In this document: one piece after another, positions 15,799 through 23,194 of the stretch | How the letters are laid out: every line of letters starts with the position of its first letter | How positions within the stretch are numbered: the first letter of the stretch is position 1 | NCBI RefSeq assembly: GCF_988243305.1 | Contig: NZ_OZ547136.1 | DNA: 64,000 nt | Reading direction: 5' to 3' (one strand) | Made by a program: the position numbers and the translations under genes | Notes under the pieces: generated by a model | The model's database searches: none | The model's input: the letters and a program-made list of their open reading frames with translations, nothing else | Told to the model about the DNA's origin: nothing

Positions 15799-16005
15799 TT
15801 ACGGACGGGACTGTGCAATACGCGCCTGCAGCCAGGCTTCCACTTCACTTTTCAGCCATCGGGAACTGCGGCCCAGCTTGATGGGGGCCGGAAAGGCCCC
15901 ATCCCTGATGAGTTTGTAAAACCACTTATCGGTCAGGCCAGTCAGTTGAGTGATAAACGCCATGTCGACCATCTGGTCATCCATCAGTGAAACTGGGGTG
16001 GTCAT
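15799..16005 (-). CDS. alpA: AlpA-family transcriptional regulator / excisionase-like protein
   Basis: MTTPVSLMDDQMVDMAFITQLTGLTDKWFYKLIRDGAFPAPIKLGRSSRW… matches AlpA. Confidence 0.8.
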   Translation of the reverse strand: MTTPVSLMDDQMVDMAFITQLTGLTDKWFYKLIRDGAFPAPIKLGRSSRWLKSEVEAWLQARIAQSRP

Positions 16006-16911
16006 GAGAATGTTCCTCCGGATGTTGTTAATCTCAACCGGCGTTGGTGATGAAAACAACGCACCACCTTCACCGGCATAACAACCGGGGAGAAACGTAA
16101 AAAATAATCGGGAATGTGACCGCCAGGAGATAAACGGGGGGATTGCGGTGGCTGAGCCGTACCGGTATGTCGGGTGGTTGTTGCGAAACGATGCTTCCGC
16201 ACGCGATAAAGGAGGGAGGACTTTCGTGAGACAAGGGGAAAACTAGCGTTCTGATAATTGCAGAGTTGTTTTTGAAGGCGGTTGTGGTATATCAGCCTGT
16301 GACCTGTGGGCAGGCGACAGTTATCACTGGTGGGATAATACTGTCTGATTGGTATTATAAATATATAAGAGAGATCAAACACATGAGATCAAACACATGA
16401 GTTCATATATGTGAAATAAATCTGTGAGTGTGATCAGCAGACCAGTCTACCCAGTAGCAACAGATTGCGTTGTACTCACAGGGTTATCCCTGATAACTGG
16501 CGTATAACCTGCGTACATAAAACGTACCTGCAATGCACCTGAACAGAGTGCATTAAGCATCCGCCTGAGCGGTAAACGTATCCGATCTGGTGAGTGACAG
16601 TCTGAGAGCATTCTCAGTAATCGCCCCCTTGTATCCTGGAAATTGGTTAAGATAACAGCGATTAGATTTGGCAAGGTGTATGCAGCCAGCAGCTTAACAT
16701 CTCAGCTAACTGGCTGGTTACCTTCAGGTTGTCGCAATGGCATCGGACATCCGGTGTCGGATAACTAAACGTAGCGTTAAGGCGATATTGCTGAGAGACC
16801 GGTTAAGTGGTTGCACGGGAGTAATGAGTTTGGGGAGGGCACCAGAATGCCAGGTTGGTGCGGTATGCTGACAGCATCCTGTTAACCGCAGCATAAAGTA
16901 ATGAGAGGCTA

Positions 16912-17124
16912 ATGGAAGTTAAAACCAAAGAAGACTGGCTGTATCAGCTCCGTCGTTGTTCATCCCGGGAGACACTGGAAAAAGTGATTTCCCACACACG
17001 TTATAAACTTACCCCTGCGGAGCTGGAAGCCTTCAACTCTGCGGTCGATCACCGGCTGGCAGAACTGACAATGAACAAGCTTTACGATCGCGTGCCGGCT
17101 TCAGTCTGGAAATATGTCATCTGA
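16912..17124 (+). CDS. Hha/YmoA-family nucleoid-associated modulator
   Basis: 70 aa; …[14 protein letters not shown]…VPASVWKYV closely parallels Hha/Cnu. Confidence 0.8.
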
Positions 17125-17720: not shown

Positions 17721-18326
17721 GTGGCTATTCCGTATGAACCATACGGAGATTTAACCATGACCTACAAATACAACCCCTTCTGGCAGCAACGTATTCGTGA
17801 GACGGTGCGGCACGCACTGAATGTTCATCCCCGCCTGACGGCATTGCGGGTTGACCTGCGTCTCCCGGATGTACCGGCAGCAACGGACGCAGCTGTGATA
17901 TCCCGCTTCATCAATGCCCTGAAAGCCCGAATCGACGCTTACCAGAAACGTAAGCATCGGGAAGGTAAACGCGTGCATCCCACAACCCTGCATTACGTCT
18001 GGGCCCGGGAGTTTGGGGAGTGCAAAGGTAAAAAACACTATCACCTGCTGCTGCTGGTCAACCGGGATACCTGGTGTCGTGCCGGTGATTACCGCGCTCC
18101 GGGGTCACTGGCCGGGATGATTAAACAGGCCTGGTGCAGTGCCCTGGGAGTGGATGCCGGACGTTATGACACGCTGGCACATTTTCCGGTCAGGCCGGCG
18201 GTGTGGCTGGAACGCGATGATGACACCGGCTTTCAGCAGGTGCTGGAGCGTGCTGACTATCTGGCGAAGGAGAGTACCAAAGCTTACGGCACCGGTGAGC
18301 GCAACTTTGGCTGCAGTCGTGGCTGA
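17721..18326 (+). CDS. YagK/YfjJ-family (inovirus Gp2-like) protein with HUH-like motif
   Basis: HYHLLLLVN His-hydrophobic-His motif; family assignment from memory; start may be the internal Met at 17757. Confidence 0.55.
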   Translation: MAIPYEPYGDLTMTYKYNPFWQQRIRETVRHALNVHPRLTALRVDLRLPDVPAATDAAVISRFINALKARIDAYQKRKHREGKRVHPTTLHYVWAREFGECKGKKHYHLLLLVNRDTWCRAGDYRAPGSLAGMIKQAWCSALGVDAGRYDTLAHFPVRPAVWLERDDDTGFQQVLERADYLAKESTKAYGTGERNFGCSRG

Positions 18327-18455: not shown

Positions 18456-19057
18456 TTGCCTGCGTGTCGTCTGGCGGTAAGGAACCACACTATGTACGCA
18501 AAATCTTTTCTCGCACTTGATGGCAACGGACGTCTGACCGGTGCCCGTACCGCACAGACCGCACCTTATGCTTACTACACCTGCCACCTTTGCGGCAGTG
18601 CACTCAGATACCACCCGCAGCACGACACGGAACGTCCCTGGTTTGAACACACTGACGACGGGCTGACGGAGCACGCGCAGCAATGTCCTTATGTCAGGCC
18701 GGAACGCAGAGAAATACGGTTGATTAAACGTCTGCAGCAATTCGTCCCGGATGCCTTACCCGTGGTACGTAAAGCCAGCTGGTACTGCAGGCAATGTCAC
18801 CACGATTATTATGGGGAGCAGTACTGCACACACTGCCAGACCGGGCGCTTCAGTGAGGACGGGGAGCAGAATGAACGGTATAAAAACGGGGCTGGGGATC
18901 ACGCCGGGTGAGCACATTATCAGTGCCGACTCTGCGCTCAGCAGAAATATCCGGCATTGTTTCTGCCTTTCCTGTCATGGCCGGTTGATTCTGCAGACAG
19001 ATGCTCAGGGGGCGTGGTTTGAGCACGATTTACATGCCCTGAGTGAGCAACAGAAGG
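18456..19057 (+). pseudogene. Disrupted gene for a Cys-rich protein with repeated C..C…WFEH modules; frameshifted and cut by IS66
   Basis: Two overlapping ORFs in different frames each carry CxxC…WFEH(D/T) modules; 3' end runs into the IS66 terminus. Confidence 0.4.
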
Positions 19058-19094
19058 GTAAGCGTGCAGCAAGAACCGTATTGACGGGGATGTG

Positions 19095-20633
19095 TTATTC
19101 AGTCGGCAGTGCTACGCGCCAGGGGAGCAGTTCGCCGACCCGGTTTATCGGCCAGTCGGCTATGACGTCAAGGACATAGCGGAGGTAGCTTTCTGGCTCC
19201 ACTCCGTTCAGTTTGCACGTCCCGATCAGGCTGTACAGCAGCGCTCCCCGCTCTCCTCCATGATCCGAACCGAAGAACAGGTAGTTTTTGCGGCCCAGAC
19301 TGACCATCCGCAACGCATTTTCAGCGATGTTATTGTCCGCCTCAGCCCAGCCATCATCTGCATAGTACGTCAGCGCCGGCCACTGGTTCAGGGCGTATGC
19401 GAACGCTTTCGCCAGTTCTGAGTGTCGCGACAGGGTTTTCATCTTTTCACGCAGCCAGCTTTCCAGGGATTTCAGCAGCGGTTTCGTTTTCAACTGACGT
19501 TCGGCAAGGCGCTGTTCCGCCGTCATTCCCCTTATCTCTGCCTCGATGGCGTACAGTTCGCCGATCCGTTTCAGCGCTTCCTCCGTCAGGGCTGACGGGG
19601 TGCGAACGTGCACATCGTGGATTTTACGGCGGGCGTGAGCCCAACAGGCGGCTTCCGTTATCCGGCCATCCCGGTACAGCTCGTTGAACCCGGCGTATGC
19701 ATCCGCCTGCAGTACACCACTGAACCCCGCAAGATGGGTCTGCGGATGGATGCCTTTTCTGTCCGGGCTGTAAGCGAACCACACCGCCGGCGCCAGCGTT
19801 GACCCGGCGTTACGGTCGTCACGAACATACGCCCACAACCGCTCGGTCTTCGTTTTCTTATTGCCTGGCAACAGCACCGGGACAGGCGTGTCATCAACAT
19901 GGAGCTTACCGTCAGTCAGCACATAGCCATGAAGCGCCTCTTCCAGCGGAGACAGCTGCCGGCAGCATGCATCCACCCAGCCCGACAGCAGTGAACGGCT
20001 CAGCTCCACACCTTGCCGGCCGTATATTTCTGACTGGCGATACAGCGGGGTGTGCTCTGCATACTTCGAGGTCAGCACGCGGGCCAGCAGCCCCGGTCCG
20101 GCGATACCCCGCTCGATGGGCCGCGAAGGTGCAGGTGCCTGCACGATGGCATCGCACTGAGTACAGGCATGTTTTTCCCGTACCGTCCGGATAACCCGGA
20201 AGGCGCTACGCATCAACTCCAGCTGTTCGGCGATATCCTCGCCCAGATAGCTCAGTGAACCGCCGCAGTTCGGGCAGCACGGCGCCGCAGGCAACAGTCG
20301 CTTTTCGTCACGGGGTAGTGATTCAGGGAACGGCTTACGGGTGCGGGTCTGACGCAACGGACGCTGTACTGCCGGGTCATACACCCTACCAGTCAGCGTA
20401 TCGCTCTCTTTCTGAAGCCGGTTCAGATCGGCTTCCATTTGTGCGATACGGCGGGAGACTTTTTCGGAACGACTGCCGAAGTTCATCCGGCGGAGTTTAT
20501 CCAGCTGCGCCTGCAGATGGTCTATTTCGCGCTCCCGGTTGCTCAGCTTTTCCTGCAGGGCGTGGATCAGCGCTTCCTGTTCGGCCAGGCGCTGTTTCAG
20601 CAGGAAAATGTCGTCAGAAGAGATGTCGTTCAT
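19095..20633 (-). CDS. IS66-family transposase TnpC (complete, about 512 aa)
   Basis: Full-length TnpC with CPNCGG zinc motif; start taken at MNDISSDD. Confidence 0.9.
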
Positions 20634-21730
20634 ACATCGTGTATTTTTCGCCGGGCATGGACCCAGCACGCAACTTCTGTCTGTGCACCACCTTCACGTT
20701 TGGCACTGAACAGCCGATCGTAACCGCTGAATGCATCCGCCTGCAGGATACCCCGGAAGGGACGAAGGTGTTGTACCGGATGTTTTCCCTGCCTGTCTGG
20801 TGAGTAGGCGAACCAGACCGCCGGTGGCTCTGATGAGCCCGCATTCCGGTCATCCCGGACATACGTCCAGATGCGTCCTGTTTTTGCCTTTTTTCTGCCC
20901 GGTGTCAGCACTTTTACCGGTGTGTCGTCAGTGTGAACCTTGCGGGTGTTCATCACGTAACGGTACAGGGCATCATTCAGCGGAGTCATTAACTGGCAGC
21001 ACGCGTCAACCCAGTTGGAGATTAATGCACGGCTCAGTTCGGCACCCTGTCGGGCAAAGATTTCACTCTGACGATACAGTGGCAGGTGTTCGCAGTATTT
21101 TCCCGTTAACACGCGGGCAAGTAATCCGGAGCCCGCGATGCCGCGCGCTATCGGGCGGGACGGCGCTGGCGCTTCAACTATACAGTCACATTTTGTACAG
21201 GCTTTTTTTACCCGAACAGTGCGGATCACTTTCAGGGCGCTACTCACCAGTTCCAGCTGCTCAGCACTGACTTCACCCAGATAATCCAGCTCACTGCCAC
21301 ACTCCGGGCAACAACTTTCTTCAGGCTCCAGGCGGTGTATTTCACGGGGAAGATGTGCTGGTAACGGACGACGATGACGTGACTGTCGCAACTGGCGGGG
21401 AACCTGCGGGTCATCCTCACGCCCACTGTAACGATCGCTTTCCTGTTCGCGTTGTTTCAGTTGGGCCTCAGCCTGTTCAACCTCACGCTGCAGTTTTTCA
21501 GAACGGGTACCGAACAGCATCCGGCGCAGTTTTTCTATCTGGGCCCTCAGATATTCTATTTCCCGCTCCTCCTCTTCGATCTTTTCTTCGGCACGTGCCA
21601 GTGCAGAGCGCAGGAAGGCCTCCGTCTCTTCAACCAGACTCAGTTGCAGATCTCTCTGACGGAGGGCTTCAGCCTGCTCAGAGAGCAGCCTTTCCAGCTC
21701 AGTGATACGAATGAGGTATTTCCGACTCAT
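20630..21730 (-). pseudogene. IS66-family transposase TnpC, C-terminally truncated (N-terminal 366 aa of a different copy)
   Basis: Ends at …[12 protein letters not shown], the point homologous to the middle of the complete TnpC; its stop overlaps the next start. Confidence 0.8.
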
Positions 21731-21760
21731 GACCGTTTTTATAATCCGGCCATGACATTT

Positions 21761-22111
21761 TTACAACATTGTCAGTGCGTTAAGACGGGATGTTTTTGGC
21801 TGACGCCAGTCCAGCTTATCGAGGAGCATTGCCAGCTGCGAGCGGGTAATGGATACCTTACCGTCACGCACCGCAGGCCAGATAAACAGGCCTTCCTCCA
21901 GGCGTTTGGTGAACAGGCACAGACCATCAGCATCAGCCCAGAGGATTTTAATCATGTCACTCCGTCGGCCACGGAAGATGAACAGGTGACCGGAGAAGGG
22001 GTTCTCATCCAGCACATGTTGTACCTGTTCCCCCAGACCGTTGAAGGATTTACGCATATCAGTAACGCCGGCAACCAGCGAGATTCGAGTGTCTGATGGG
22101 AGCGAGATCAT
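21761..22111 (-). CDS. IS66-family TnpB (Orf2)
   Basis: 116-aa IS66 Orf2-like protein overlapping tnpA. Confidence 0.85.
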   Translation of the reverse strand: MISLPSDTRISLVAGVTDMRKSFNGLGEQVQHVLDENPFSGHLFIFRGRRSDMIKILWADADGLCLFTKRLEEGLFIWPAVRDGKVSITRSQLAMLLDKLDWRQPKTSRLNALTML

Positions 22112-22533
22112 CGCCCCCTCCCGGTCAGTTCACGGATCAACACCGTGAGCAGCTCTGGTGAAGGATTTTCCAGCGTCATGTTACCGTGGCGGAACTCAAC
22201 TTTACAGGAACTGGCACTGACTGTGCTTTGTGAAGGAGTGGATAAAAGCGGAGTAAGAGCCGCCATAGGCTCTTTCTGCTCATCAGGCGTTATCTCAACA
22301 GGTAATAATTCAACGCCAGCGTCAGAAGAGGTTGTTACCGGAAGACGCCGCGATATACGCCCTTCGTTCTGCCAGAGCCTGAGCCATTTGAACAGGAGGT
22401 TATCATTGATATCGTGTTCCCTGGCAATACGGGCAACAGAGGCTCCTGGTTGCAAAGCCAGTTTAACCATTTGAAGTTTAAACTCATTTGAAAATGTTCT
22501 GCGGGGTTCTGCGGATAATATTTTCTGTTCCAT
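22108..22533 (-). CDS. IS66-family TnpA (Orf1, HTH)
   Basis: 141-aa IS66 Orf1-like protein. Confidence 0.85.
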   Translation of the reverse strand: MEQKILSAEPRRTFSNEFKLQMVKLALQPGASVARIAREHDINDNLLFKWLRLWQNEGRISRRLPVTTSSDAGVELLPVEITPDEQKEPMAALTPLLSTPSQSTVSASSCKVEFRHGNMTLENPSPELLTVLIRELTGRGR

Positions 22534-23194
22534 AACAGGTGTCCACTAGTTGATGAAAAGGTGGGCACCTACGTTACCAATACTGGCTTAATGGCTACAT
22601 ACGGCGGTCAGTTTACGCTTACCATGTATCTGGCGAGTGAAGCTTTATGTCGTGTTCTGGCGTGTCCTGTGTTAGTTAGAACACGCCATCGATGGTCAGC
22701 AGGTTCATATTGCACCAGAGCGGATACAGCGTGGTGTTATGTCAGGGCTGCGCTGTTTACGTGAACACGTGGCGTATGGCCCCGCTTCCTGGCCGCTGCT
22801 GGGCATGGATCACGGCGCGACAAAGGGGCGACTACCTGGCAGCATGTGTCCAGCCGGTTCACAATCTGGTGAAGGTTCCTTACGCTCATGGGCCATACTG
22901 ATAATTCACCAGGCCATCATTTCCAGAGGAAGACGCCGTTTGCGTAGCGTGACAGTGTCGGACTCTTCAGGGCTGTGGGTAATCAGTTCCGGGGCAAGAT
23001 AGTCGCAGAGGGTTACGCAGAGAATAGTAACTGGACACTGGATCGATCAACCGATCCTTAACTGAGCGGCATGACAGCTTTCTGATGGTTTTTTTTTGAT
23101 AATCTTCACATTGTGCTTCTTTTCTGTTGGATAATCTTTGTACTTGATGGTGTACTAGGTATCCCATTATGCAGTTAAGTGAAGGTGATTAAAA

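Follow-up and report, generated by a model that had tools for sequence, protein, structure and literature searches.

A tandem pair of small zinc-ribbon genes, the second cut by IS66, in an Escherichia coli island

The DNA analysed here (a 64-kb stretch, hereafter referred to as the window) contains two overlapping open reading frames of the plus strand, located in different frames (18456..18911 and 18751..19179). The first of them holds gene A (18492..18911, plus strand), annotated in RefSeq as a "putative zinc ribbon protein" (WP_001423036.1; other proteins bearing this name include WP_000271030.1 and WP_001013306.1). Its true start is the ATG at 18492, in agreement with RefSeq, and the TTG at 18456 is only the mechanical start of the ORF. 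The encoded protein (139 aa, vs 127 aa in relatives) matches two Pfam domains, i.e. DUF7828 (PF25165; residues 2–87; 105.3 bits, E 1.4e-30) and Zn_ribbon_11 (PF11682; residues 94–123; 32.6 bits, E 6.2e-8), the latter with its WxCxxC…CxxC motif. Both scores exceed the respective gathering scores (25.7 and 24 bits), which makes the product of gene A a full member of the DUF7828 + Zn_ribbon_11 family. Moreover, it carries every candidate ligand (C31, C34, H53, C65; C99, C102, C112, C115), and the conserved columns of the family (C31, C34, F51, H53, C65, W97, C99, C102, C112 and C115) are complete. None of the NCBIfam families was matched by the window proteins.

The homology of the second frame begins at the ATG at 18871; thus, the segment 18751–18870 of the listed ORF lies outside the gene. 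What is present is a remnant of gene B (18871..19057, plus strand; RefSeq pseudogene C_RS29745), which comprises the first 62 of 141 codons. It encodes the N-terminal half of DUF7828 (57.3 bits, E 1.3e-15, profile positions 2–62 of 87), with CxxC and WFEH retained, and ends two codons short of the Cys equivalent to C65. The C-terminal Zn_ribbon_11, present in the intact gene B of strain RM14516 (L002), has been removed by the insertion sequence. The CxxC…WFEH module is CHLCGSALRYHPQHDTERPWFEHT in gene A and CLSCHGRLILQTDAQGAWFEHD in the remnant of gene B, with 14–17 residues separating CxxC from WFEH. Since both DUF7828 scores lie far above the cut-off, the module match is not due to chance, and the initial annotation was right in placing a CxxC…WFEH module in each of the two frames.

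DNA alignment with related loci revealed a 1-bp deletion (a missing T; 18864..18865, plus strand) close to the end of gene A, where the window reads GACGGGG-AGCAG and relatives read GAGGGGGTAGCAG. As a result, gene A has its last 4 codons replaced and gains 12 new ones, which extends the overlap of the two genes from 4 to 41 nt. Compared with other members of the family, the window is therefore distinguished by a frameshifted, 12-aa longer tail of A, and by a gene B reduced to its first 62 codons. Behind the deletion, gene A continues in the third frame and not in that of gene B; hence, the missing base creates no relation between the two ORFs. Gene A is essentially intact in the window, as the deletion rewrites the non-conserved tail alone. 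A 70-bp probe spanning the deletion gave matches of at least 99% in 128 genomes, and a probe for the IS junction (described below) matched 705 of 5,426 complete E. coli genomes. Strain WP4-S17 (L004) shares the IS junction but lacks the deletion. Taken together, this indicates that the IS event came first, and that the 1-bp deletion arose after it, in a sublineage.

Homology with the island stops at 19057, and DNA alignment places the beginning of an IS66-family end (GTAAGCGTGCAGC) at 19058. This terminus starts with GTAAGCG and also occurs on its own on many plasmids. The frame of gene B stays open for 40 codons into the IS sequence, up to a stop at 19179, so that the final 122 nt of the interval (19058–19179) are IS sequence. 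The truncation of the second gene by IS66, proposed in the initial annotation, was thus confirmed, with the cut located at 19057/19058. The element responsible is an IS66-family mosaic of two elements (19058..22621, minus strand; tnpA, tnpB and tnpC annotated). It consists of a full tnpC (19095–20633), an abutting second tnpC of which 366 N-terminal codons are present (20630–21730), tnpB (21761–22111) and tnpA (22108–22533), all on the minus strand. The ends of the region are GTAAGCGT… (at 19058) and …ACGCTTAC (at 22621); the latter, located by reading of the sequence, belongs to the second IS66 element.

Like other members of the IS66 family, this region has the terminal GTAAGCG end and tnpA, tnpB and tnpC genes, and disrupts a host gene with one of its ends. 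In contrast to them, it is a two-copy mosaic with a duplicated tnpC segment, it lacks an 8-bp target-site duplication (the flanking 8-mers, ACAGAAGG and CATGTATC, differ), and flanking DNA has been lost. Neither repeat nor pattern searches detected an inverted repeat matching the end at 19058. In addition, the rest of gene B has no match anywhere in the 64-kb window, including the DNA beyond the IS elements. The two tnpC segments, the unlike flanks and the missing part of gene B speak against a simple insertion of a single IS66 element. The ends derived from different IS66 copies and the absent target duplication suggest instead that the truncation probably resulted from a deletion mediated by IS elements, or from recombination of one IS66 copy with another. 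Gene B has been destroyed, with an IS66 end located behind codon 62 and its remaining part lost along with distal island DNA.

These genes lie in a degraded fragment of an island of uropathogenic E. coli. The segment 18300–19200 is 99.9–100% identical to chromosomes of uropathogenic or B2-type strains, e.g. CFT073, ATCC 25922 and BR1220, the last of which matches the window exactly over this segment. In the RefSeq record of CFT073 the order of genes is "inovirus Gp2 family protein" (YagK/YfjJ), WP_001423036.1, a pseudogene "missing C-terminus" and an IS66-family tnpC. The locus, with its zinc-ribbon gene and cut pseudogene beside IS66, is therefore already annotated in RefSeq, and both domains are already present in Pfam. 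In the window the Rep-like yagK gene (17757..18326, plus strand; PF11726, E 1.2e-47) is separated by 165 nt from gene A, which follows it downstream; the yagK product weakly matches REP_ORF2-G2P as well (E 2.3e-5, below the cut-off). A gene for an AlpA-type helix-turn-helix protein, which belongs to the same island module, was identified at 15799..16005 (minus strand) from RefSeq annotation and comparison of loci. A Hha-family gene is located at 16912–17124 (plus strand). When the part of the window spanning 15799–17124 was compared with CFT073 (L001), indels of approximately 80–100 bp were observed between alpA, hha and yagK; the zinc-ribbon region of the two is 99.9% identical.

The order yagK, A, B is common to hundreds of E. 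coli islands. Nearly all of the roughly 40 loci with enough flanking sequence have a YagK-like gene upstream on the same strand, mostly at a distance of 0.7–2 kb (maximum 3.8 kb), and in most loci outside E. coli alpA lies between yagK and the zinc-ribbon genes, also on the same strand. A second YagK/YfjJ-like gene is often found about 1 kb downstream of the pair in intact islands (L002, 5109–5894; L015, 5585–5986; L017, 5506–5895; L023, 2404–2793; L025, 5562–5948; L040, 5547–5927; L041, 5562–5951); the window lacks this portion of the island. Judging by titles and abstracts, the papers listed for YagK/YfjJ mention these proteins only in passing.

The intact state of the locus was sought in related islands. 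In strain RM14516 gene A (127 aa) and gene B (141 aa) are both complete, and the ATG of B is placed over the TGA stop codon of A as ATGA. The same layout of two genes is found in BEN2908 (L010), and in HS4 (L009) gene A is followed by a paralogue of a third type, which overlaps it by 13 nt. Two separate full-length genes are thus present in each of these three E. coli loci, and they also occur in other genera (L005, L015, L022, L023, L025, L040 and L041). The overlap amounts to 4–13 nt in the intact loci whose gene calls were read, and in the remaining ones the genes abut or overlap. Among the matches listed, each E. coli record spanning the A/B boundary has two genes annotated. The intact products of A and B are paralogues (33% identity over 84 residues, E 7e-13), each of which has the CxxC…WFEH…C module in its N-terminal part and a WxCxxC…CxxC ribbon in its C-terminal part. 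The two-gene layout and the ATGA overlap are retained in loci about 10% apart in DNA sequence, and the layout persists in other genera at approximately 25–30% protein identity. When each gene was analysed in its own frame (Nei-Gojobori), the dN/dS values were 0.06–0.25 for A and 0.05–0.08 for the retained part of B, which shows that both frames have long been coding. A and B are under purifying selection, each in its own frame. The repeat is therefore the product of gene duplication rather than an internal repeat, and the difference in frame is native. The position of the B start codon over the A stop codon suggests that in the native arrangement the two genes may be translationally coupled.

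These observations bear directly on the interpretation proposed in the initial annotation, namely a single ancestral gene with internal CxxC…WFEH repeats, split by a frameshift and then cut by IS66. The occurrence of similar modules in adjacent overlapping frames, a real 1-bp deletion close to the A/B boundary, and the existence of a 238-aa relative (P0106) with two N-terminal modules in one chain all speak for such a gene. However, A alone and B alone each encode a full two-domain protein, the intact state found in related islands is a pair of genes and not one ORF, and this arrangement holds at the DNA and protein divergences given above, with purifying selection acting on both frames. Moreover, the library matches are nearly all 120–170 aa in length, and the only frameshift, i.e. 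the deletion in the last codons of A, neither separates nor joins the ORFs, since the tail behind it is not read in the frame of B. We consider an origin from one repeat gene very improbable. An A–B fusion protein made by programmed ribosomal frameshifting would account for the overlap and the different frames seen in all the E. coli loci, but no slippery heptamer is present at the overlap (…GTAGCAGAATGAACGG…), B starts at an ATG of its own, preceded within a few bases by a GGAG-type Shine-Dalgarno sequence, the length of the overlap varies (4, 13 or 41 nt), and in some loci the copies are far apart or single. The probability of this explanation seems, if anything, slightly lower still. There is thus little doubt that the window locus consists of two tandem paralogous genes of a small zinc-ribbon family, found here in Enterobacterales only. 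The explanation as a whole (a tandem zinc-ribbon pair with B cut by IS66, to which an accessory role can be ascribed by inference) is, in our opinion, with high probability the best one.

The family to which these genes belong is small. When 1.84 billion representative proteins were searched with the family profile, only 241 clusters were obtained, and nearly all of the 150 clusters listed represent single-unit proteins of 120–170 aa; the sole fusion among these 150 is P0106, composed of a truncated unit and a full one. In a scan of genomes and viral contigs, performed with an alignment narrower than the 40-sequence alignment of the family, all genome loci (31/31) originated from Enterobacterales, and 2.9 million viral contigs were found to contain a single related locus. 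Tandem pairs were identified in at least 10 loci outside E. coli, among others in Salmonella diarizonae, Superficieibacter, Rosenbergiella, Serratia, Siccibacter, Citrobacter, Mixta and Tenebrionibacter. About half of the non-E. coli loci carry a single copy, from which it follows that a heterodimer is not obligatory.

It can be stated with considerable confidence that an intact member of the family is a protein of 120–170 aa with two predicted zinc-binding modules. The DUF7828 module, as read from the conserved residues, contains a β-hairpin, CxxC, [WY]F[ES]H and a further Cys, which likely form a Cys-Cys-His-Cys site; the C-terminal module is the four-Cys Zn_ribbon_11 (WxCxxC…G.K.CxxC). Judging from the invariant Cys/His pattern and an AF2 model built from 40 sequences (mean pLDDT 89.9), the products of A and B would bind zinc. 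The model had no significant structural neighbour in PDB or BFVD. A profile search of PDB returned two-ribbon proteins of the RPB9 type (E 0.011–0.04), which were taken as matches of Cys patterns. A literature search for DUF7828, PF11682, DUF3279, Zn_ribbon_11 and the RefSeq product names retrieved no study on the function of the family.

Several E. coli members (P0047, P0048, P0055 and P0068) are chimeric and represent mixes of A, B and the third type ("C"), e.g. the N-terminus of A joined to the C-terminus of B, which points to recombination between paralogues or between island alleles. It was also observed that the second copy has been independently broken by a frameshift or stop codon in several species and strains (L003, 4434–4846; L017, 5016–5396; L019, 5001–5387; L035, 4849–5279; L037, 5001–5380); in E. 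coli 042 (L003), for example, gene B carries a frameshift of its own. Such frequent disruption of second copies suggests that the genes are perhaps dispensable in decaying islands, and gene B may be either dispensable or counter-selected. In many loci outside E. coli a short ORF precedes the first full-length copy, directly after alpA where it was mapped (L014, 4678–4839; L019, 4408–4479; L025, 4347–4442; L033, 4446–4535; L041, 4348–4443; also L021, L022 and L023). Only a portion of the family profile is matched by this ORF, chiefly that of the C-terminal ribbon (from about 64–95 to about 118–126), and it could be a third, ribbon-only gene or a remnant.

The initial annotation had also compared the module with zinc-ribbon and nuclease-like motifs of the CoiA type. 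This resemblance holds for the N-terminal zinc finger, but no nuclease domain is present. The window proteins had no match to CoiA_N (PF25164) at E ≤ 1; in individual scans, 14 of 40 family members matched this family weakly (best E 6.9e-5). Comparison of the family with a CoiA_N alignment by hhalign gave a probability of 89% and E 2e-6 over 50 columns, which cover the N-terminal β-hairpin, CxxC and WFEH/HFAH. The CoiA_N alignment was composed of seven proteins, fetched with a CoiA query sequence (used for retrieval only) and confirmed by precomputed Pfam annotation with PF25164 and PF06054. The supposed nuclease-like motif, WFEH, aligns with HFAH of the zinc finger, and no match to CoiA_nuc (PF06054) or to PD-(D/E)xK nucleases was obtained; CoiA_nuc was absent from A, B and all 40 relatives. 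In a preprint on CoiA the corresponding region has been described as a putative C2H2 zinc finger beside a PD-(D/E)xK nuclease domain (10.1101/2024.02.06.579203).

CoiA (CoiA_N, CoiA_nuc and CoiA_C, PF25166) and the zinc-ribbon family thus share the aligned region of the β-hairpin, CxxC and xF(A/E)H. They differ in that the members of the family end after the second ribbon, at around 130 aa (vs approximately 300–400 aa), and lack both the PD-(D/E)xK nuclease and CoiA_C, with a second four-Cys ribbon in the place of the nuclease. Furthermore, the first His of the CoiA HFAH is replaced by Trp or Tyr, and the genes are enterobacterial island genes and not competence genes. The assignment of A and B to CoiA proteins was rejected in view of the absent nuclease domain and CoiA_C and the length of 120–170 aa. 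The alignment nevertheless indicates that the DUF7828 zinc module and CoiA_N may be distant homologues at the level of the domain.

As regards function, the two zinc modules, the absence of a catalytic domain, the overlapping start and stop codons and the fixed linkage with the Rep-like and AlpA genes suggest a possible accessory role. The products of A and B would be small zinc-dependent nucleic-acid-binding factors with no catalytic domain of their own, acting as a pair where both copies exist. They would serve the island maintenance core (Rep-like YagK/YfjJ and AlpA), e.g. by DNA recognition for excision, replication or regulation. In the present strain the pair is broken, so that at most gene A would be active. 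The partnership of A and B, as well as their functional coupling to YagK and AlpA, is what we infer, and we put forward the identification of A and B as nucleic-acid-binding accessory proteins of an excision, replication or regulation core only as a tentative proposal.

Another conceivable role is that of zinc-finger proteins which activate the transcription of island or helper-phage genes, rather than that of replication or excision cofactors, by analogy with Ogr of phage P2 and Delta of satellite P4, the latter being a tandem duplication of an Ogr-like unit. In common with these small Cys-rich zinc proteins of P4-type elements, the family forms tandem paralogues, resides in P4-like (CP4-type) islands and occurs beside a regulator of the AlpA/Vis type. 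However, no sequence similarity to Ogr or Delta was detected and no indication of a role in transcription was found. The Ogr_Delta family of Pfam was absent from the best 25 of 94 families for the 40 members, and the single related locus among 2.9 million viral contigs also speaks against a phage activator; this possibility is an unlikely one, somewhat less plausible than the accessory role. The position of the genes in mobile islands would be in keeping with cargo acting in anti-phage defence or anti-defence. Defence cargo is usually variable in position, whereas the location by yagK and alpA is fixed across genera; moreover, PADLOC revealed no defence system and no effector-type domain is present. 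A functional screen that recovered a CoiA-domain protein among the defence genes of E. coli (PMC9519451) was counted in favour of this role, but the likeness to CoiA is confined to the zinc finger. We find it hard to regard the pair as defence cargo, and hold this to be less probable than the Ogr-like role. PHROGs gave no useful match to phage families.

For the window itself the significance of these results is small, as the locus is an ordinary one. They show, however, that ORFs of the same family overlapping in two frames are not evidence of a frameshift where the intact state is a tandem pair. The kinship with the zinc finger of CoiA offers nucleic-acid binding as a first working hypothesis for two functionally uncharacterised Pfam families, and the zinc-ribbon family emerges as a conserved, unstudied companion of YagK/YfjJ and AlpA in islands of Enterobacterales. 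In a more far-reaching and rather speculative interpretation, its members, often an A/B pair with overlapping start and stop codons, would be dedicated zinc-finger DNA-binding partners of YagK/YfjJ and AlpA, with which they would make up an uncharacterised core module controlling excision or replication in a widespread class of Enterobacterales islands. At transformation D-loops, CoiA would then employ the same module for nucleic-acid recognition as these proteins have in their N-terminal domain.
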